This document shows, one piece after another, positions 2,700 to 32,058 of a stretch of DNA of 64,000 bases. Positions within the stretch are counted from its first letter, which is position 1. Each line of letters opens with the position of its first letter. Source of the stretch: Escherichia phage vB_EcoM_WFbE185. Below the pieces are notes generated by a model. The model was given only the letters and a program-made list of their open reading frames with translations. It was not told where the DNA came from and made no database searches. The translations under genes were made by a program, and so were the position numbers. Location of the stretch: the sequence record MK373778.1. One strand, 5' to 3'.

Positions 2700-3983
2700 A
2701 TGAGTAAAATCCAAAAATTATTGCGTGAATCTACAACGTCTACTAGCAACTCAATTGGTCGCCCAAATCTCGTTGCTTTGACTCGCGCTACGACTAAATT
2801 AATATATTCTGACATTGTAGCAACACAAAGAACTAATCAACCTGTTGCTGCTTTTTATGGTATCAAATATCTTAACCCAGATAACGAATTCACATTTAAA
2901 ACCGGTGCTACTTATGCTGGCGAAGTTGGATATGTAGACCGAGAAAAAATTACCGAGCTCACAGAAGAATCAAAAGTCACACTAAATAAAGGCGATTTTT
3001 TCAAATATAATAATATCGTTTATAAAGTATTAGAAGATACACCGTTTGCAGATATTCAGGAAAGTGATCTAGAATTAGCTCTTCAGATTGCGGTCGTTCA
3101 TTTAAAGGTACGGTTGTTTTCAGATGCAGCGGTAACAAGCAAATTTGAAAGCTCTGGTAGCGAAATTTCTGATGCAAGATTCCAGATTAATAAATGGCAA
3201 ACCGCTGTTAAATCTCGTAAACTTAAAACTGGCCTAACGGTTGAATTAGCGCAAGATTTGGAAGCGAATGGATTTGATGCCCCTAACTTCTTAGAAGATT
3301 TACTTGCTACTGAAATGGCTGATGAAATTAATAAAGATATTCTTCAGTCTTTAATTACTGTATCGAAACGTTATAAAGTTACTGGAATTACTGACACCGG
3401 ATTTATTGACTTGAGCTATGCGTCTGCTCCAGAAGCAGGTCGTTCATTATATCGAATGGTGTGTGAAATGGTATCACACATTCAAAAAGAGTCAACTTAT
3501 ACCGCAACGTTTTGCGTAGCTTCAGCTCGTGCAGCCGCTATTCTTGCTGCTTCAGGTTGGTTAAAACATAAGCCGGAAGATGATAAGTATCTTTCACAAA
3601 ATGCTTATGGATTCTTGGCAAATGGATTACCTCTTTACTGCGATACTAACAGCCCGTTAGATTATGTTATTGTGGGTGTTGTAGAAAATATCGGCGAAAA
3701 AGAAATTGTAGGGTCCATCTTTTATGCTCCATACACTGAAGGAGTAGATTTAGATGACCCGGAACATGTTGGTGCATTTAAAGTTGTAGTTGATCCAGAA
3801 AGCTTGCAACCGTCTATCGGATTATTGGTTAGATATGCTTTATCAGCAAATCCTTACACAGTAGCAAAAGACGAAAAAGAAGCGAGAATAATTGATGGTG
3901 GGGACATGGATAAAATGGCAGGACGTTCAGACTTGTCTGTTTTACTCGGTGTTAAATTGCCTAAAATTATTATAGATGAATAA
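2700..3983 (+). CDS. 24: head vertex protein gp24
   Basis: 427 aa; position after gp23; late promoter TATAAATA 27 nt upstream; AAGGA RBS. Confidence 0.9.
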   Translation: MSKIQKLLRESTTSTSNSIGRPNLVALTRATTKLIYSDIVATQRTNQPVAAFYGIKYLNPDNEFTFKTGATYAGEVGYVDREKITELTEESKVTLNKGDFFKYNNIVYKVLEDTPFADIQESDLELALQIAVVHLKVRLFSDAAVTSKFESSGSEISDARFQINKWQTAVKSRKLKTGLTVELAQDLEANGFDAPNFLEDLLATEMADEINKDILQSLITVSKRYKVTGITDTGFIDLSYASAPEAGRSLYRMVCEMVSHIQKESTYTATFCVASARAAAILAASGWLKHKPEDDKYLSQNAYGFLANGLPLYCDTNSPLDYVIVGVVENIGEKEIVGSIFYAPYTEGVDLDDPEHVGAFKVVVDPESLQPSIGLLVRYALSANPYTVAKDEKEARIIDGGDMDKMAGRSDLSVLLGVKLPKIIIDE

Positions 3984-3991
3984 ACGAAAAA

Positions 3992-4007
3992 GGGACCGTA
4001 CGGTCCC
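3992..4007. terminator. bidirectional terminator between gene 24 (+) and rnlB (-)
   Basis: GGGACCG-UA-CGGUCCC flanked by A5 and T5 tracts. Confidence 0.6.
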
Positions 4008-4014
4008 TTTTTCG

Positions 4015-5013
4015 TTATGATACTAATTCAATCCATGCAGGACGCAGAACATCTTGCACCATTCGGACTAATTCTTTCTTAACAAGATTCGGATTATCGG
4101 ATGATGTTAATACAATACCTTCACGAGAAGTTTCTTCCAGAATATCTTGAACAGTCAATCCCATCACTTTGCCAAAATCTTTTGGCGTTACAGTCCCAAT
4201 CTTAGAAATCACATTATTAACACGGTTTAATGTAACATAACAAGCTAGGACATCAAGCAAGTTTTTGTCAATTTCGGTTAATGGAACCTGAGTTTTAATA
4301 GGCTTATCAGACTTTTTCTTTTCACTGAATTTAGAGTTCTTGCACTTAATAGCTACACGAGTACCGTTTGGCAGCCATTTAGGGAAACAAGGCTTCAGAA
4401 CATAACCTTCTGCTGTATTATCGCCAATAACATTAGCATCAAATACACAATTATTTGCTTCTACAAGGTCTTCTGACGCAGTAGCATTATAAGCGGCTAA
4501 GACGGAATCAAGGTCATTTGGAATCGCGATAAGAGCATCGAATGTTCCACGACCGAGCATTGGTGCCATTTTAAAACCGAATTCATTACAGAAATCTTGC
4601 ATTTCGTAATCGGTCAAATACGTATTATCACCACTTTCTGTATTGATAAGGATATCGAACACATAAAAATCTTTTTCACCGTAGTCAACACCTTTCTGGA
4701 TTCCACCACCAGCGAATTCACCAAAGACCTGATATGATACAGCTCGAGAACTACCCATTACTTCTTGAACGTTTTTAATAGCCTTATCATACTTCTTGAG
4801 TACAATTTCATAACCATAAAAATCTTCTGCTGGAAGAATAGGGCCTGTGCGCTTGGCGCATGTGACGTTGTCACGTTCAATTATTAACGAGAAGTTAGTC
4901 CCATGGATTTTCTCACGTGCTACCCAAACACCAGTAGTCAAACCATTAGTGTAGAGTTTTTCAATAAACTTAGAGTTGTAGTGGTTTTCAAGACTGCTGT
5001 ATTTCTTAAACAT
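4015..5013 (-). CDS. rnlB: RNA ligase 2 (RnlB)
   Basis: 332 aa; nucleotidyltransferase motif I KIHGTN (Lys-x-His-Gly-x-Asn); T4 position downstream of gene 24. Confidence 0.85.
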
Positions 5014-5104
5014 AAATCACCATTATAAATAATAATATCAAAATAATTAGCAGAGACTCTATCTCTGACCGGATGTTTAATTTGAATGGATAGAACCTAG
5101 ATTC

Positions 5105-5130
5105 ATTATACCATCAAAAATTGTAAAGCA
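5105..5130 (-). promoter_or_regulatory. middle promoter (MotA box TGCTTTA, 13-nt spacer, TATAAT) for rnlB
   Basis: Minus strand reads aTGCTTTAc-N13-TATAAT; matches T4 middle-promoter architecture; motA is present. Confidence 0.5.
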
Positions 5131-5132
5131 TA

Positions 5133-5384
5133 TTAGAACTTGATTTCTATCCAATGACCATCACGCTGGTCGTGATTAATTTTGTACTGAAAGCCGTTAT
5201 CACGAAGCCATTGACCGACTTGTTCAGTTATAGTTAAATCATTCTTTGACGGATAGTATGTAAATTGTGTCTGGCCTTTGTCAGCGGCTTTCTCTGCCAT
5301 CGCAGAGAAGTTAGTAATAAAATCACTCAACAAATTAGCTTTAGTGGCCAGAGCCCTTTCTCTTAATTCCTGTGCAAAACTCAT
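5133..5384 (-). CDS. hypothetical protein (T4 24.2-like by position)
   Basis: 83-aa ORF in the rnlB-hoc interval; stop immediately followed by the rnlB middle promoter. Confidence 0.5.
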   Translation of the reverse strand: MSFAQELRERALATKANLLSDFITNFSAMAEKAADKGQTQFTYYPSKNDLTITEQVGQWLRDNGFQYKINHDQRDGHWIEIKF

Positions 5385-5575
5385 TTCTTCACCTTTTTGT
5401 TAATCAAACGTTTACGGTATACAACTTTTTCTTTTGCTTTAAACTTTGACCGAGCTGTCTCGGCTTTAGTCCATAGTAATCCAACTTCTTTAGGTTGTAA
5501 ACCGATTTTTTGAGCAATTTCTACGAATGAAAATCCCGCCTCATGTAATGTATAAACTTCAACTTCAGCTCTCAT
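5381..5575 (-). CDS. hypothetical small basic protein (T4 24.3-like by position)
   Basis: ORF-track start at 5581 is a TTG; first ATG is two codons in (MRAEVEV...); overlaps next gene by 4 nt. Confidence 0.45.
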   Translation of the reverse strand: MRAEVEVYTLHEAGFSFVEIAQKIGLQPKEVGLLWTKAETARSKFKAKEKVVYRKRLINKKVKK

Positions 5576-5656
5576 AATCAATCCCGTATTATTTGGTTTG
5601 TGCCATTATATACATCAATCTCAAGTTGTGTTTTGTATGCTTTAAAAACGAAGAAA

Positions 5657-5670
5657 GGGGCCGAAGCCCC
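5657..5670 (-). terminator. terminator after hoc
   Basis: GGGGC-UUCG-GCCCC followed on the minus strand by UUUCUUCGUUUUU. Confidence 0.55.
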
Positions 5671-5676
5671 TTACGA

Positions 5677-7095
5677 TTATGGATATGTATAGATGATACC
5701 AGTTTCCAAAGCAGTTTTATGGATGACGTATCCATTACGTGATTCTTGAACATCAACTTCTGGATAGTCTTTCATCATCTTCTGAAGAGTGTAACGATGC
5801 AGGTAGTATTTACTATCTGCATCTTCAGTTTTCCAATCTTTACCTTCTTCAGTCATTTTTTGTATTTCATCCATAACCCACCAACCGCACCAGATGTAAG
5901 CTGAAGTACGATGTGGAAGAGGATGAACATAAGGTAATTCACCTTCTGGTTCTGGAGCAACTTTATCGGTTACCTGAACTTGTCCTTCTGCTGTAATAGT
6001 TTTGCTATCATAATCAGTAGCAGTAACGACGGCAGTCACTTCAATAGTTTGACTTCCAATAGATGAGGTATCAACGGTATATACATTAGTTGACCCTTCT
6101 ACAGGAGAAGAATCTTTCTTCCATGAATAAGCAATTTGTGCTTCTTCTGGTGCACCAGTAACATTAGCTGTAAATGTAGCCGAAGCATCTTGTTGAACAT
6201 TAATAGAAGGAGGAGTCAATGTAACCTGTGGATTCATTGTCTTCTTATTAACCGTTAATGATACTTCATTCGAAGTAACTTCCTTTGCATCATAATCTGT
6301 CGCAGTTACTTGGGCTACACATTTAATTCTTTTTACTCCACTTGTAGTTGGAGTATAGCTAAATGTAGAGTTAGTTTCTCCACCAATCTGTGAATCATCT
6401 ACATACCACTGATACGTAGCAGACGCTCCAACCGGTTGAGAAGCTAAGGCGGCAGTAAATTGAACTGGGGTTCCAATTACTCCGGCTGAAGGACTATTGG
6501 GAGTTACTGCCAACGTAGTTGTCTGCGTCTTTTTATTAACAGTCAGTGACACTTCATTAGAAGTAACGCTTAGTGCGTCATAATCTGTTGCGGTTACTTG
6601 AGCCACACACTTAATTCTTTTTACCCCGCTTTCGGCAGGAGTGTAATTGAATGTAGCGTTAGTTGCTTCGCCAACAGGAGAATCATCTACATACCATTGA
6701 TAAGTAGCGTTTGCGCCTGATGGCTGCGAAGCTAAAGCGGCAGTAAATTCAATAGCTGTTCCGATTACTCCAGCGTCAGGGCTATTAGGAGTTACAGCTA
6801 AGGTAGTCGTTTGTGTCTTATTTTGAACTGTGATAGTTGTAGAAGCTTCTGCTGTTTCAGCTTCAGCTTCTGGAACTGTATTTGTTGCAACTACTTTAAT
6901 AGACTTTTGACCTGCAGGTCCTTTTAACACATAATCAAAAGTTGCTTCAGCTCCATCTTGCGAAACATCATCTACAGTCCAAGCATATGTAATAGTTCCA
7001 CCTCCAGTTTCACCACTGGGAGTAGCAGTAAACTGCTGAGTCTGATCTATAACTCCAGTAGGTGTTTTAGGAGTTATATCAACTGTAAAAGCCAT
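5677..7095 (-). CDS. hoc: highly immunogenic outer capsid protein Hoc with four Ig-like domains
   Basis: 472 aa; N-terminus MAFTVDITPKTPTGVID and C-terminal capsid-binding region match T4 Hoc; an extra near-identical 96-aa Ig-like domain is present. Confidence 0.85.
   Translation of the reverse strand: MAFTVDITPKTPTGVIDQTQQFTATPSGETGGGTITYAWTVDDVSQDGAEATFDYVLKGPAGQKSIKVVATNTVPEAEAETAEASTTITVQNKTQTTTLAVTPNSPDAGVIGTAIEFTAALASQPSGANATYQWYVDDSPVGEATNATFNYTPAESGVKRIKCVAQVTATDYDALSVTSNEVSLTVNKKTQTTTLAVTPNSPSAGVIGTPVQFTAALASQPVGASATYQWYVDDSQIGGETNSTFSYTPTTSGVKRIKCVAQVTATDYDAKEVTSNEVSLTVNKKTMNPQVTLTPPSINVQQDASATFTANVTGAPEEAQIAYSWKKDSSPVEGSTNVYTVDTSSIGSQTIEVTAVVTATDYDSKTITAEGQVQVTDKVAPEPEGELPYVHPLPHRTSAYIWCGWWVMDEIQKMTEEGKDWKTEDADSKYYLHRYTLQKMMKDYPEVDVQESRNGYVIHKTALETGIIYTYP
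6241..6816 (-). repeat. hoc: in-frame tandem duplication (2 x 288 bp) encoding two near-identical Ig-like domains of Hoc
   Basis: Protein units aa 94-189 and 190-285 both run TQTTTLAVTPNSP...VKRIKCVAQVTATDYDA...SNEVSLTVNKK with about 85% identity. Confidence 0.8.
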
Positions 7096-26542: not shown

Positions 26543-26550
26543 TATTTATA
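26543..26550 (-). promoter_or_regulatory. late promoter motif (TATAAATA, minus strand) upstream of rIII
   Basis: Exact minus-strand TATAAATA immediately after the gene 31 stop, 117 nt upstream of rIII. Confidence 0.4.
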
Positions 26551-26940: not shown

Positions 26941-27249
26941 TTACATAAGAAGCAAACGTTCTACCGGAGTACCATCAACCGAAATTACTTTATCAAGGCG
27001 GAAAGAACGCCACTGACCTAACTTGGTATCGAATGCTCGAACTGATTCACGAGGTTCAGAACGAACTTCTGTTGCCGGATTGTTATTTTCATATTTGACT
27101 TCAAGTTCATCGCGCGAAGCAAACATAGTGCGTACCTCACCGTTAGCCTTTTCAAATACAACACAATGAACGCCTACAGACAGAATAGTTTTAATACGTT
27201 CACGAAGAACCATAGTCTCTTGTTCAGTTAAAATCATATTATTCACCAC
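26941..27249 (-). CDS. hypothetical protein (31.1-like)
   Basis: 102-aa ORF between cd and gene 31. Confidence 0.5.
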   Translation of the reverse strand: MVNNMILTEQETMVLRERIKTILSVGVHCVVFEKANGEVRTMFASRDELEVKYENNNPATEVRSEPRESVRAFDTKLGQWRSFRLDKVISVDGTPVERLLLM

Positions 27250-27820
27250 AAAAGTTTCGGATTTGTTCCCAATTCAGAGAACGAAGATTATTACGAGAGT
27301 ACTGAATTACTTCAATACCGGCTTGTTTTAGAATGTCTGCCCAATTTTCAGGAGATCTGTCATATAATTCTGCGTATACAACCTTTTTAATACCTGACTG
27401 TGTAATAGCTTTAGTGCAATCAGGACACGGAGAAAGCGTCGTATATAACGTAGCACCTTCAATAGAATTACCTTTACGAGCTGCAAACAAAATTGCATTC
27501 AATTCAGCATGGATTTCATTATTAGCAGACCATGCACTATGAGCCGCTCGATGTTCTTTAGCCAAAACAAAATTATCCACCCGTCCAAATGCTGTAGTGC
27601 CTTCTTTATGCCCAGCAACGATGACCGGGCTTGGTTTATTCTTCAACCAACCGTTTTCGGATGCATGTTCGCAACAGTTTGTACCACCTGAAGGAGAGCC
27701 ATTATAACCTGTAGAAATAATGCGTCCATCTTTTTCAATGACGGCACCAACTTTCCATGAACAACATTTTGATTCTTGAGAAATCAAATAAGCAATTTGA
27801 AGATATGTGCTAGCTTTCAT
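27239..27820 (-). CDS. cd: dCMP deaminase
   Basis: 193 aa; zinc motifs HAE...PCxxC (HAELNAILFAARKG, SPCPDC); matches T4 Cd. Confidence 0.92.
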   Translation of the reverse strand: MKASTYLQIAYLISQESKCCSWKVGAVIEKDGRIISTGYNGSPSGGTNCCEHASENGWLKNKPSPVIVAGHKEGTTAFGRVDNFVLAKEHRAAHSAWSANNEIHAELNAILFAARKGNSIEGATLYTTLSPCPDCTKAITQSGIKKVVYAELYDRSPENWADILKQAGIEVIQYSRNNLRSLNWEQIRNFCGE

Positions 27821-28812
27821 TATTGAACCTTATTAATATAAGTTAACAGCTCTTTAGTTTGTTCCCAACTGATGCACGCATCGGTAACGGAAACGCCATA
27901 GGACATATTATCAGAAATTTTTTGATTTCCTTCATGTAGGAATGATTCTATCATAATTCCTTTGACCAAATCATTAGCTGCTAAATTTTTACCAATACCA
28001 ATTTGATTGCTATAATGCCCAGCAGCGTTTGCATGGCTACAGTCAACCATTACATAATGATTCAGACCTACTGCACTTGCTTTGTTAGAAGCTTCTTGAA
28101 TATCAGAAGAATGATAGTTCGGGCCGTTGGTCCCGCCACGCAATACGATATGCGTATTCTGATTACCTTCAGCTTCAACAATGCCTACAGTACCATCGAC
28201 GTCCATACCCATATACCGATGAGGCCAGGCGGCACTATACATCGCGTCTGTAGCTACTTTAATAGAACCATTGGTTGCGTTCTTGAAGCCTACGCACATC
28301 GGTAGACCTGAAGCAATTTCACGATGTGTCTGACTTTCAGTCGTACGGGCGCCAATAGCAACCCATGAGAAAATACCAGAAAGATACTTAATCGTGAATG
28401 GGTCTAATACTTCAGTTGCTAATGGAAGTCCCATACGTAGAAGTTTACGACACAATGTTCGTGCAACTATAAGACCGTGGTTCATATCAAAACTTCCGTC
28501 AAGATATGGATCATTTACAAGACCTTTCCAACCTACGGTAGTTCGAGGCTTTTCAAAATAAACGCGCATCACTAACAGAACATTAGGAAGACGAGTTTGA
28601 AGTTCAGCCAGACGTTTGCCGTATTCAACAGCAGCAATAGGGTCATGAATTGAACAAGGACCTACAACAATAAGTTTGCGTGGGTCTTCACCGTTCATAA
28701 TCGAATTAACTTGTTCGCGATGAGAAGCCACTTGTGATGCGTAAGCTTCCGACAAAGGAATAATCTCAGCCAGTTCTTTTGGAGAAATAAGTTTTCCGAC
28801 GACAGGTAACAT
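27820..28812 (-). CDS. 3-deoxy-D-arabino-heptulosonate-7-phosphate (DAHP) synthase, class I-alpha (AroF/AroG/AroH-like)
   Basis: 330 aa; signature blocks LIVVGPCSIHD, RVYFEKPRTTVGWKGL, IGARTTESQTHRE, VGFKN, VMVDCSH, ESFLHEGNQ, YGVSVTDACISWE; AAGGA RBS, ATG start. Confidence 0.9.
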   Translation of the reverse strand: MLPVVGKLISPKELAEIIPLSEAYASQVASHREQVNSIMNGEDPRKLIVVGPCSIHDPIAAVEYGKRLAELQTRLPNVLLVMRVYFEKPRTTVGWKGLVNDPYLDGSFDMNHGLIVARTLCRKLLRMGLPLATEVLDPFTIKYLSGIFSWVAIGARTTESQTHREIASGLPMCVGFKNATNGSIKVATDAMYSAAWPHRYMGMDVDGTVGIVEAEGNQNTHIVLRGGTNGPNYHSSDIQEASNKASAVGLNHYVMVDCSHANAAGHYSNQIGIGKNLAANDLVKGIMIESFLHEGNQKISDNMSYGVSVTDACISWEQTKELLTYINKVQ

Positions 28813-28932
28813 AACAATCCTTAGGAGATATAAACAGATTCTGATTCAACAATACCTTTAACCGGATTAGACAGGCTAAGTTGGTAGTGCTCAGATTTAT
28901 GACCATTCTCGATAGTAATGAGATAGCTCTCA

Positions 28933-29169
28933 TTATAGTGTTCCATATACTCGAGTTGCTTCAACAAGACCATCACTGCCTAATTTAAGATTAGTAATTT
29001 GGTCACCATCTTTAGGATTAACGATTATGAGAAAAGAACGTGGAGATTCTTGAATAACTCGTAATGTTGCATCTTGGAAACGTTCAGACACTTTATTGAT
29101 GAGTGCTTGAGCAAATTCTTTTACTTTAATCTGAAATTCGTGTACTGTAATTGGGTTTTCACTTAGCAT
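28933..29169 (-). CDS. hypothetical protein, first gene after an early promoter
   Basis: 78-aa ORF; hairpin-embedded early promoter at 29198-29227. Confidence 0.45.
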   Translation of the reverse strand: MLSENPITVHEFQIKVKEFAQALINKVSERFQDATLRVIQESPRSFLIIVNPKDGDQITNLKLGSDGLVEATRVYGTL

Positions 29170-29197
29170 TTCTATTTCCTCATTTGTTGGTAGAGTT

Positions 29198-29227
29198 ATA
29201 GTATCACAACTCTACCATGTTGTAAAC
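29198..29227 (-). promoter_or_regulatory. early promoter (GTTTAC-N18-TACTAT) with -10 inside 9-bp inverted repeat; heads the transcription unit containing DAHP synthase and cd
   Basis: Inverted repeat GGTAGAGTT / AACTCTACC (29189-29197 and 29208-29216) brackets the -10. Confidence 0.5.
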
Positions 29228-29229
29228 CA

Positions 29230-29505
29230 TTAAATTGCTTTGCATTCAATTTTTTGTGTACCGAAATTGATATCACATTGGATAACTAAATCGCCGTCAA
29301 GATCAAATACCACGATGACGTGTGCAGACCCAGGGAGAAGAGTAATAGCAATAGAATCTACTTGGTCTGGGAGCAAAGCATTGAGTACATGAGTTACTTG
29401 AGCATGAACTCTGAGTTCGGCTGCATTATTAAGCACTTCAAACATATTATTAGCAATAATCTGACTGAAGACTACCTTTACAATTTCAGAATAAGTTGGG
29501 AACAT
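29230..29505 (-). CDS. hypothetical protein (cd-pseT interval)
   Basis: 91-aa ORF, compact minus-strand array. Confidence 0.45.
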   Translation of the reverse strand: MFPTYSEIVKVVFSQIIANNMFEVLNNAAELRVHAQVTHVLNALLPDQVDSIAITLLPGSAHVIVVFDLDGDLVIQCDINFGTQKIECKAI

Positions 29506-29512
29506 AATTACC

Positions 29513-29737
29513 TCAGTGCACAGTATTTACTTTAACTCGAACAACAAATCGCTCGGTTGGTTCACCTACAGGAACAAACTCTACATGATATTCACCTTTG
29601 TAACGAGTATTCAGATCATTACGAATTCCTGCGAGTTTGTTGATTAATGTAGGACTCATATTAAGTCCCACTAGTTTACGAAGCATTTTGTATGCTTCAT
29701 CTTCGATTTCATGATGTTTATCGTACATAGTTTTCAT
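29513..29737 (-). CDS. hypothetical protein (cd-pseT interval)
   Basis: 74-aa ORF. Confidence 0.45.
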   Translation of the reverse strand: MKTMYDKHHEIEDEAYKMLRKLVGLNMSPTLINKLAGIRNDLNTRYKGEYHVEFVPVGEPTERFVVRVKVNTVH

Positions 29738-29909
29738 TTAACCATTCAATTGCCTGGTCGACGTTATCAAATATACCACCGTCCAAACGTTCTTCATGCT
29801 CATAGTCCAGCACATCAATACCGAACTGTCCATTTACTAAAGGCCAGGCTACAAACAAATATTCTTTATGCTGTTCGATTGTACGAAAAATCTTTTCGAT
29901 GTTATTCAT
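29718..29909 (-). CDS. hypothetical small acidic protein (cd-pseT interval)
   Basis: 63-aa ORF overlapping both neighbours. Confidence 0.4.
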   Translation of the reverse strand: MNNIEKIFRTIEQHKEYLFVAWPLVNGQFGIDVLDYEHEERLDGGIFDNVDQAIEWLNENYVR

Positions 29910-30624
29910 AAGTTTTCCATTTTCTACCTAGTTGCCAGTCCGGGCTGTTTAATCTAGGATCGTTTATATCGGTGGTAGAAGACTTTTTACCTGAAATATG
30001 GATTAACCATTTTCTAGATTTAGCTGCTTTAGAATAATTTTCTTTAGCCTTATCACTTCTAACCTTGCCTTTATTGGATTTGGATATTTTATTACCCCAT
30101 TCAATAATAGACTCTTCACTCATAAAATCTTTAACATTCTTACCATACATAGGATTATTTTCGCCTTTAAACGTATTACCATTTTTAAGACGGGTTTCTT
30201 TAGATTTAATCCCATGACCTGGCAATTTCTTACCTTTAATCCAAGGAACCACACCATTATTAAATCGTTCTTTTTGCGATTTAGAAATTTTTGCAGATGT
30301 TTCTGGGCTTGAATTAACATTAATACGATTTTCATTAATATAATCCCAGCCTCCTTCTCCGCCAGGTTTCAAATTGTAATTAGTATCCAGTTTTATAAAT
30401 TCTTTAGTTACTAATTTGGCTTCTAAATCATATGCTTCTTGTTTAGTTTCAAATATTTTTATGATTTCTTTATTAAAAGAATCTTTACCATATTTTGATT
30501 CAGCATTTTTAAAAGCTGTACCGGAACCTAAATAAGAATCATTTTCTTTTAAGGTCTTATGAACCCCTATATAAATTTTGTTGTTAACCAAACATGTGGT
30601 TTTATACACAGTGTATTTTTCCAT
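29902..30624 (-). CDS. free-standing GIY-YIG homing endonuclease (Seg-like)
   Basis: GIY-YIG variant motif VYKTTCLVNNKIYIGVH at N-terminus; Lys-rich C-terminal DNA-binding region; ATG MEKYTVYK with GAGGTGA RBS (track start is GTG). Confidence 0.8.
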   Translation of the reverse strand: MEKYTVYKTTCLVNNKIYIGVHKTLKENDSYLGSGTAFKNAESKYGKDSFNKEIIKIFETKQEAYDLEAKLVTKEFIKLDTNYNLKPGGEGGWDYINENRINVNSSPETSAKISKSQKERFNNGVVPWIKGKKLPGHGIKSKETRLKNGNTFKGENNPMYGKNVKDFMSEESIIEWGNKISKSNKGKVRSDKAKENYSKAAKSRKWLIHISGKKSSTTDINDPRLNSPDWQLGRKWKTYE

Positions 30625-30671
30625 TAGAATCACCTCTATAGATATTTATATTCATCTATGGAGATTTCTAA

Positions 30672-31758
<1,087 letters not shown>

Positions 31759-31759
<1 letters not shown>

Positions 31760-32058
31760 TATTTTATTCCTAAGAAAGTTTCAAGAATACGAATGTTATG
31801 CTCGCGCCGGTCTTTATTAATTTCAGCAACGTTTTTATTAATTGACGTACTTCTAACGTTTGAAGAAATAAATTTAATCATATGACTTTTGAGTTGTTGC
31901 AAATCCAACCCTTTTTCTTTAGCAGCTTTACGAAGAGCTTTACCTGCTTCATCTAGTGCCTTTGCTGCATCTTTGTCATAATTGACAAGTGACATTCCAC
32001 GGCAGATATCAATATACTCGTCAGACCGTTTGATGTAATTCTCTAGTAATGTTTTCAT
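31759..32058 (-). CDS. hypothetical protein
   Basis: 99-aa ORF preceded by a hairpin-embedded early promoter (32087-32116). Confidence 0.5.

Follow-up and report, generated by a model that had tools for sequence, protein, structure and literature searches.

We analysed the interval between cd and pseT in a 64,000-nucleotide stretch of DNA from Escherichia phage vB_EcoM_WFbE185 (MK373778.1), here called the window and numbered from its first letter. Comparison of positions 27000-31800 with GenBank phages places the source phage in Mosigvirus, the RB69-like T-even phages. At least 80% of this region is covered in 137 GenBank phage records; the best of them, p000y, is 99.1% identical over a coverage of just 83%, and coverage reaches 100% in PNJ-9 alone, at 94.9% identity. 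[quoted passage not shown] The two genes that bound the interval belong to the phage backbone: cd (27239-27820) encodes a dCMP deaminase of 193 aa with 72% identity to T4 Cd and a match to Pfam dCMP_cyt_deam_1, and pseT (30672-31571) encodes a polynucleotide kinase/phosphatase with 75% identity to T4 PseT and matches to HAD_PNKP and AAA_33. Homologues of every ORF exist in many phages, and therefore none of the ORFs at this locus is a chance ORF.

An earlier model-made reading of the letters, which we call the sequence-only reading, had placed these ORFs correctly, and the T4 map that it cited agrees with the T4 record, in which cd, cd.1, cd.2, cd.3, cd.4, cd.5 and pseT follow one another, with the region cd.1-cd.5 at 132.7-134.0 kb. 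It also rightly saw a hyperplastic region that differs from T4 by a metabolic enzyme and a GIY-YIG endonuclease, both absent from T4. It went on to treat the whole interval as a single accessory island. We find it probable that this is instead a typical Mosigvirus hyperplastic region made of three independent layers, namely the backbone, a DAHP synthase cassette and a homing endonuclease, with the two accessory elements unlinked.

Most of the interval's genes fall into the backbone layer. The four small ORFs had been taken for unknown island cargo, and this did not survive comparison with T4 and RB69. In a BLASTP search against the T4 proteins, the 78-aa ORF (28933-29169) matches Cd.2 at 65% identity (E 1e-33), the 91-aa ORF (29230-29505) matches Cd.3 at 79% (E 6e-52) and the 63-aa ORF (29718-29909) matches Cd.4 at 59% (E 9e-28), in each case over the full length, and the order cd.2/cd.3/cd.4 between cd and pseT is kept between T4 and the window. 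The same search returned no T4 counterpart for the 74-aa ORF (29513-29737), which is RB69ORF227c, a gene kept in other genera of T-even phages, 100% identical in RB69 and present at the same locus in 337 phage records, including RB69, JS98, VR25/VR26, S16, PG7 and Marfa. The RB69 record, sequenced in 2003, already annotates cd.2, cd.3, ORF227c and cd.4 in the order seen in the window. The description of the four as free of recognisable motifs holds in part: the cd.2 and cd.3 homologues score above the cut-offs of DUF7320 and DUF7355, respectively, and all four have PHROG matches (phrog_1504 for the cd.2 homologue and phrog_3609 for ORF227c), which in the case of ORF227c, without a Pfam match, and of the cd.4 homologue are the only ones. 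An NCBIfam search of the small ORFs gave no match. The possibility that the four are paralogues of one another was rejected, as the hhalign probability is at most 1.1% for every pair.

Structure prediction, which had been proposed as a way to characterise the small proteins, yielded a confident model for ORF227c and no functional match. The AlphaFold model of ORF227c, built from an 11-sequence alignment, has a pLDDT (predicted local distance difference test) of 86 and the order helix, helix, strand, strand, that is, two helices and a hairpin; Foldseek found no match to it in the PDB at E<0.09, and in BFVD it retrieved its own uncharacterised orthologues only. For cd.3 the model shows a generic sandwich, with two helices lying on a sheet of four strands. 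Neither ORF227c nor cd.3 gained a functional lead from its predicted structure, and a literature search on T4 cd.2 to cd.4 found nothing relevant. Between cd.3 and cd.2, at 29198-29226, we noted a candidate early (sigma-70-like) promoter by its match to the consensus (TTTACA-17-TACTAT with an upstream TG), at the place where T4 has the annotated early promoter Pe133295. The genes of the interval are co-oriented, as had been stated; given this site and the late-promoter motif before the endonuclease described below, the co-transcription stated along with it is a conjecture. Within the three-layer explanation, and with the same confidence, the four small ORFs are vertically inherited backbone early genes.

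The second layer lies next to cd, where the gene at 27820-28812 encodes a type I-alpha DAHP synthase. This identification and that of the GIY-YIG endonuclease had both been made in the sequence-only reading; Pfam and PHROG support the two of them, and NCBIfam supports the synthase as well. The 330-aa product scores 251.8 bits against PF00793 (cut-off 25.5, E 7e-75), 427 bits against TIGR00034 (aroFGH, cut-off 173.2) and 454.8 bits against NF009395 (cut-off 343), and it matches phrog_5045. The NCBIfam models of AroG and AroH remain under their cut-offs (364 vs 568 and 385 vs 463, respectively), and the closest solved structure is that of E. coli AroF (6agm, E 1.5e-104). We found the gene in 212 phage records, from phages of Escherichia/Shigella, Klebsiella, Serratia, Proteus, Enterobacter, Edwardsiella, Erwinia and Providencia. 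A search of 5.8 billion proteins gave a continuous series of phage-like homologues, 319-343 aa long and 55-99% identical, and bacterial homologues that reach ~55% at most. The G+C content of the gene is 41.3%, with 29% at third codon positions (GC3), similar to the adjoining phage genes. Because of this identity series, the bacterial ceiling and the phage-like composition, the DAHP synthase appears to be an old phage-only lineage and not a recent capture from a host.

The insertion itself can be outlined by comparison with relatives. The synthase gene takes the slot of T4 cd.1, and RB69 lacks the DNA corresponding to 27823-28918, its cd.2 stop overlapping the cd ATG; the leader of the cassette is at 28813-28932 in the window. 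Just upstream, at the cd.2 stop (28918-28936), the cd start recurs in degenerate form, as ATGAGAGCTATCTCA compared with ATGAAAGCTAGCACA at the real cd start (27805-27823), and this likeness means that the cassette is flanked by an imperfect repeat of ~19 nucleotides. This duplicate (MRAIS... vs MKAST...) is probably left over from the insertion and begins an ORF of 55 aa that reaches into the start of the synthase gene. Next to cd, the slot is occupied by cd.1 in T4 and P896, by nothing in RB69, and by DAHP synthase with MobE fragments in Klebsiella phage EI, and in Proteus phage PM2 the synthase gene lies two ORFs further from cd. We propose that the cassette would have entered at the cd start codon, in the slot of T4 cd.1.

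The residues of the enzyme were compared in an alignment of 18 phage-clade and 14 bacterial sequences, E. coli AroG included. For AroG we relied on what we take to be its sequence and its residue list; as a check, this sequence has 350 aa and shows C, H, E and D at the positions of Cys61, His268, Glu302 and Asp326. Each of the 13 catalytic positions is unchanged throughout the 18/18 phage and 14/14 bacterial sequences. The metal ligands Cys61, His268, Glu302 and Asp326 of AroG correspond to C53, H260, E289 and D311 of the phage enzyme, and the residues for phosphoenolpyruvate (PEP) and erythrose-4-phosphate, Arg92, Lys97-Pro-Arg-Thr, Gly163-Ala-Arg165, Lys186 and Arg234, correspond to R83, K88, R90, T91, G154, A155, R156, K177 and R225.

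The inhibitor site differs. In the window enzyme P150, Q151, D155 and S180 of AroG are replaced by I141, K142, G146 and P171, and the replacements extend over the clade: where the bacterial sequences (14/14 at each position) have P, Q, D and S, the phage sequences have I at position 150 (17/18), K or R at 151, G or N at 155 and P at 180 (18/18 for each of these three). Furthermore, the N-terminal segment with AroG positions 6 and 7, present in the bacteria, is absent in 18/18 phage sequences; the window enzyme lacks ~9 N-terminal residues, and the ORF list holds no upstream start codon able to extend it. Q151 and S180 of AroG (Q152 and S181 of AroF) contact bound Phe or Tyr, and P150L and S180F are feedback resistant (PMC9529685). 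From the replaced inhibitor-site residues and the missing N-terminal segment we therefore infer a feedback-insensitive enzyme. The alignment suggests a phage enzyme that is catalytically competent, constitutive and insensitive to the usual aromatic feedback.

The third layer is a gene at 29902-30624, immediately downstream of pseT, for a free-standing Seg-like GIY-YIG protein, predicted to be a homing endonuclease. Translation most likely begins with the ATG at 30624 and yields 240 aa, the length annotated for PNJ-9 and P896, and not with the GTG at 30633 (243 aa), which lies within the Shine-Dalgarno sequence. The protein matches PF01541 GIY-YIG (30.3 bits, cut-off 22.6), PF07460 NUMOD3 (29.8 bits, cut-off 20.4) and phrog_314 (7e-44), and it keeps 43/43 of the columns that are invariant among 15 orthologues. 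The GIY, YIG, YxGSG, Glu and Asn motifs belong to these columns, and Y7, Y18, G20, Y31, G33-S34-G35, E68 and N84 are among the invariant residues. The G+C content of the gene is 30.2%. Over its N-terminal domain the protein has 38-51% identity with T4 SegA to SegE (best SegB, E 3.7e-32), and it aligns with I-TevI too; no T4 Seg matches the C-terminal half. The orthology to SegD implied by the labels in PNJ-9 and P896 was rejected: SegD matches residues 3-91 only (47% identity, E 1.4e-24), ranks behind SegB, SegC and SegE, and has a different locus, between genes 23 and 24. T4 cd.5 was likewise discarded as a remnant of the endonuclease, with only the last 12 nucleotides before the cd.4 start shared and no protein similarity (E 1.0).

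The putative expression signals of the endonuclease were read from the sequence at 30631-30650, with the motif TATAAATA at 30643-30650 and the Shine-Dalgarno sequence GAGG at 30633-30636. TATAAATA is the T4 late-promoter consensus. The window contains 14 copies of it where 7.35 would be expected, and a single match is therefore weak evidence. Across the 6/6 orthologous loci, with proteins down to 61% identity, TATAAATA or AATAAATA is found at the matching position, and TTTTAGTTAGAAATCNCC directly after the pseT stop is common to all endonuclease-carrying loci. A second TATAAATA on the gene strand lies at 26543-26550 (minus strand), between gene 31 and rIII, and is one of only three on the minus strand within 20-64 kb of the window.

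Close orthologues of the endonuclease (60-92% identity) are confined to 12 phage records. In every locus that we inspected, from six T-even genera, the gene lies immediately downstream of pseT: in PNJ-9 (Mosigvirus), P896 (Gaprivervirus), vB_Ent31 (Karamvirus), MP1 (Gualtarvirus), PM2 (Bragavirus) and, as a fragmented and decayed copy, Klebsiella phage EI (Marfavirus). pseT is thus its constant neighbour. Among the Mosigvirus records only PNJ-9 has the endonuclease and ~155 do not; in all of the latter the match to the window ends exactly at 29879. When the window is aligned with p000y and RB69, the match stops at 29879 and returns at 30691, which leaves a carrier-specific stretch of 811 bp (29880-30690) where endonuclease-free Mosigvirus have 49 bp and the pseT stop abuts the cd.4 ATG. 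To judge from these breakpoints, 29880-30690 represents a mobile cassette with converted flanks.

Further footprints of transfer lie in the gene and its flanks. The window and P896 share 94% DNA identity over the first 300 nucleotides of the endonuclease, and 75%, 66% and 60% in pseT, cd.4 and cd.3, respectively; at the protein level, cross-genus identity of the endonuclease compared with PseT is 88 vs 79% (P896), 74 vs 58% and 61 vs 43%. Between the window and PNJ-9, on the other hand, cd.3 and ORF227c are 95-99% identical and the endonuclease 89%, and this lower likeness of the endonuclease than of the backbone indicates separate acquisitions. The cd.4 homologue is a chimeric allele, which in the window opens with the T4/P896-type MNNIEKIFRTIE and turns to the Mosigvirus type after about codon 12, the codons up to there having come in with the endonuclease cassette; in PNJ-9 the crossover comes after about codon 27, and the 5' end of its cd.4 matches P896 at 60/60 positions. 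On the other side, the last 60 nucleotides of the window pseT agree with PNJ-9 at 57/60 and with p000y at 51/60. In PNJ-9, ~300 nucleotides of the pseT 3' end (aligned to 30738-31037) diverge from both Mosigvirus and P896, with 40-90% identity to other Mosigvirus and an equal distance from the Gaprivervirus P896, pointing therefore to a third, unsampled donor lineage. Such chimeric flanks look like the expected products of double-strand-break repair with co-conversion. None of the ~155 endonuclease-free Mosigvirus records has a chimeric cd.4, which would be the footprint of a loss. In Klebsiella phage EI (segments 3544-4138 and 6073-6611), the GIY-YIG copy is fragmented and two fragments annotated as MobE-type homing endonuclease lie between DAHP synthase and cd, so that endonucleases seem to have landed at either end of the interval.

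We propose that the endonuclease would act as a free-standing Seg-like gene placed directly after the pseT stop and served by its own late-promoter motif. When carrier and endonuclease-free phages infect together, it would cleave the endonuclease-free allele close to the pseT/cd.4 junction, and repair would copy the endonuclease gene plus short flanking tracts; the cleavage step is one that we infer by analogy with the T4 Segs.

Could the whole 2.8-kb interval nevertheless be a single accessory island, mobilised as a unit by the endonuclease? Its six genes are adjacent and co-oriented, and the window, PNJ-9, PM2 and EI (the last with its decayed copy) hold both DAHP synthase and endonuclease in the cd-pseT interval. 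However, the parts occur separately: the endonuclease is present without DAHP synthase in P896, vB_Ent31 and MP1, DAHP synthase without the endonuclease in ~200 records, and the small ORFs without either accessory gene in T4 (three of the four) and RB69 (all four), so the small ORFs show no link to the enzyme whose regulators or partners they had been suggested to be. Carrier-specific DNA is restricted to 29880-30690 and ends inside cd.4, 1 kb short of the DAHP synthase gene; window and PNJ-9 resemble each other more closely in cd.3 and ORF227c than in the endonuclease, and in PM2 the enzyme has a different position within the interval. Since the distributions are independent and the tract is short, the endonuclease does not explain the spread of DAHP synthase, contrary to the role of island spreader suggested for it in the sequence-only reading. 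That reading had also staked its island on T4 and close relatives not carrying the same gene set, and we found at least 136 close relatives with everything but the endonuclease and one, PNJ-9, with all six genes. What had looked like an island is thus a set of backbone genes with two separately distributed extras, and we give mobilisation as a unit next to no credence. A narrower doubt concerns the endonuclease, which might no longer home and be a decaying remnant or a domesticated protein. The fragmented copy of EI at the same site would fit this, as would the divergence to 80-86% nucleotide identity in the C-terminal halves of the copies from the window, PNJ-9 and P896, and activity is assigned by analogy only; yet the ORF is full length with all of its invariant columns, its promoter and Shine-Dalgarno motifs are conserved, and its cross-genus conservation above that of its neighbours goes with fresh chimeric flanks. 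We regard loss of homing activity as unlikely.

As to the DAHP synthase, the phage enzyme would condense PEP with erythrose-4-phosphate using its intact catalytic machinery and would most likely be a constitutive valve at the entry to the shikimate pathway of the infected host. Carbon flow into this pathway would be maintained post-infection, with host enzymes acting downstream, and chorismate would be supplied for aromatic amino acids and folate; a supply of folate could suit a gene placed among cd, frd, td and nrd. Under a different explanation the gene would be a recent moron, a captured host aroF/G/H with normal feedback regulation. The GenBank labels aroF or 'Tyr-sensitive' and the best solved relative, E. 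coli AroF, would agree with it, but bacterial identity does not exceed ~55% next to a phage series of 55-99%, G+C (41%) and GC3 (29%) are like those of adjoining phage genes, the AroG and AroH NCBIfam models fall below their cut-offs, and the inhibitor-site residues are replaced clade-wide; we consider a recent capture very improbable. Another possibility is that the enzyme serves DNA hypermodification, as an unregulated sink for erythrose-4-phosphate that pulls the non-oxidative pentose-phosphate pathway towards pentoses. Mosigvirus DNA contains arabinosyl-5-hydroxycytosine made from ribulose-5-phosphate, and the arabinosylation pathway is found in RB69, Serratia and Acinetobacter phages (PMC13326640). 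The phage arabinose-5-phosphate isomerase of this pathway (RB69 NC_004928, segment 7964-8599) occurs in 261 phage records and co-occurs with DAHP synthase in Mosigvirus, EcS1, Serratia CHI14, Shigella SdyM_006 and Proteus phiP4-3, as well as in Edwardsiella phages by name tallies only (3 records in each list); the two genes overlap in many Enterobacterales T-even lineages, and not in Klebsiella or Acinetobacter phages or RB69. Against a role in hypermodification, RB69 has the isomerase without DAHP synthase, 57 Acinetobacter records have the isomerase and just 4 DAHP synthase, and DAHP synthase is found in 25 records from Klebsiella, which is nearly absent from the isomerase list. An obligatory pairing of DAHP synthase with the arabinosylation genes was accordingly rejected, with exceptions in both directions, and since co-occurrence may reflect shared ancestry alone and the metabolic logic is speculative, we judge this use of the enzyme improbable.

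A further-reaching reading, to which we give somewhat less than even odds, is that T-even phages infecting at least eight genera have in common an old DAHP synthase lineage, specific to phages, in which the feedback site has been dismantled and catalysis kept. It would be a natural feedback-resistant enzyme with which a lytic phage forces open the first committed step in making host aromatic and folate precursors, or that drains erythrose-4-phosphate for pentose-hungry DNA hypermodification. Several points weigh against our account of the locus. A literature search found no paper on any phage DAHP synthase, and the benefit to the phage is therefore conjecture; RB69 grows without the enzyme, which is therefore dispensable in the laboratory, and the substituted inhibitor site could bind another effector. 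For the endonuclease, the sequence search returned no relative of solved structure, and the pseT C-terminal codons show no consistent carrier pattern that would mark uncuttable alleles, the carrier vB_Ent31 having the same Asn-His there as the non-carrier p000y. The promoter assignments, early and late, are consensus matches alone.

Nearly all of the gene content described here is already in GenBank. What goes beyond database annotation is the apparent clade-wide dismantling of the DAHP synthase feedback site, and the strict pseT linkage and putative homing footprints of the endonuclease lineage; the papers found by our literature searches mention neither the allosteric-site signature nor the pseT linkage. 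The DAHP synthase clade naturally combines changes that metabolic engineers use to deregulate the shikimate pathway, which makes it a candidate feedback-insensitive enzyme and a putative case of a lytic coliphage rewiring the host supply of amino-acid or folate precursors. The pseT-linked endonuclease offers a natural series for homing between T-even genera, comprising both an intact and a decayed copy, two independent invasions of a single genus that differ in their crossover points, and ~155 empty sites. Neither lead alters the understanding of these systems, and their importance is modest; a much-sequenced region is now divided into backbone and cargo.

The annotation of the region can be improved as well. 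GenBank labels at the locus are inconsistent, with pseT given as 'zeta toxin' or 'kinase', cd as 'ribD riboflavin biosynthesis protein', the 31.1 homologue as 'tail fiber protein' and DAHP synthase often as 'hypothetical protein'. Misleading labels that can be corrected on relatives are 'Tyr-sensitive aroF', 'SegD', 'tail fiber protein', 'zeta toxin' and 'ribD'. In RB69 (AY303349, segment 4280-4400), cd is annotated with 169 aa, compared with 193 aa in T4 and the window, and the missing C-terminus (...IEVIQY...NWEQIRNFCGE) continues in another frame, which therefore indicates a frameshift or a sequencing error in the record. In p000y (MK047718, segment 4911-5810), pseT is annotated with just 777 nucleotides; tblastn gives a full 299-aa match at 98% identity over 4914-5810, and the annotated start is probably wrong.

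Compared with known systems, the phage DAHP synthase resembles E. coli AroF/AroG/AroH (EC 2.5.1.54; 6agm, 1kfl) in fold family and length class, with ~50% identity and identical metal-ligand, PEP and erythrose-4-phosphate residues. It differs from them in lacking the ~9 N-terminal residues, in two short deletions near the C-terminus, in failing the AroG- and AroH-specific NCBIfam cut-offs and in being the product of a lytic phage's gene, the codon composition of which is phage-like. Its changes lie at the same positions as those of the engineered feedback-resistant AroG variants P150L, S180F and Q151 and of AroF Q152I (PMC9529685), whereas in the phages they are natural, combined and fixed clade-wide, and the phenotype is predicted from sequence. 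The endonuclease is like T4 SegA to SegG in the likeness of its N-terminal catalytic domain (SegA to SegE), in its location between conserved genes, in its sporadic distribution and in flanking alleles that look co-converted; unlike them, it has an unmatched C-terminal half and a locus downstream of pseT, where T4 has cd.5. Finally, the interval as a whole corresponds to the hyperplastic region cd.1-cd.5 of T4, with common flanking genes, orientation and gene order, with orthologous cd.2, cd.3 and cd.4, and with an early promoter, a candidate in the window, between cd.3 and cd.2. It departs from the T4 region in having DAHP synthase in place of cd.1, the endonuclease in place of cd.5 and an additional RB69ORF227c between cd.3 and cd.4.

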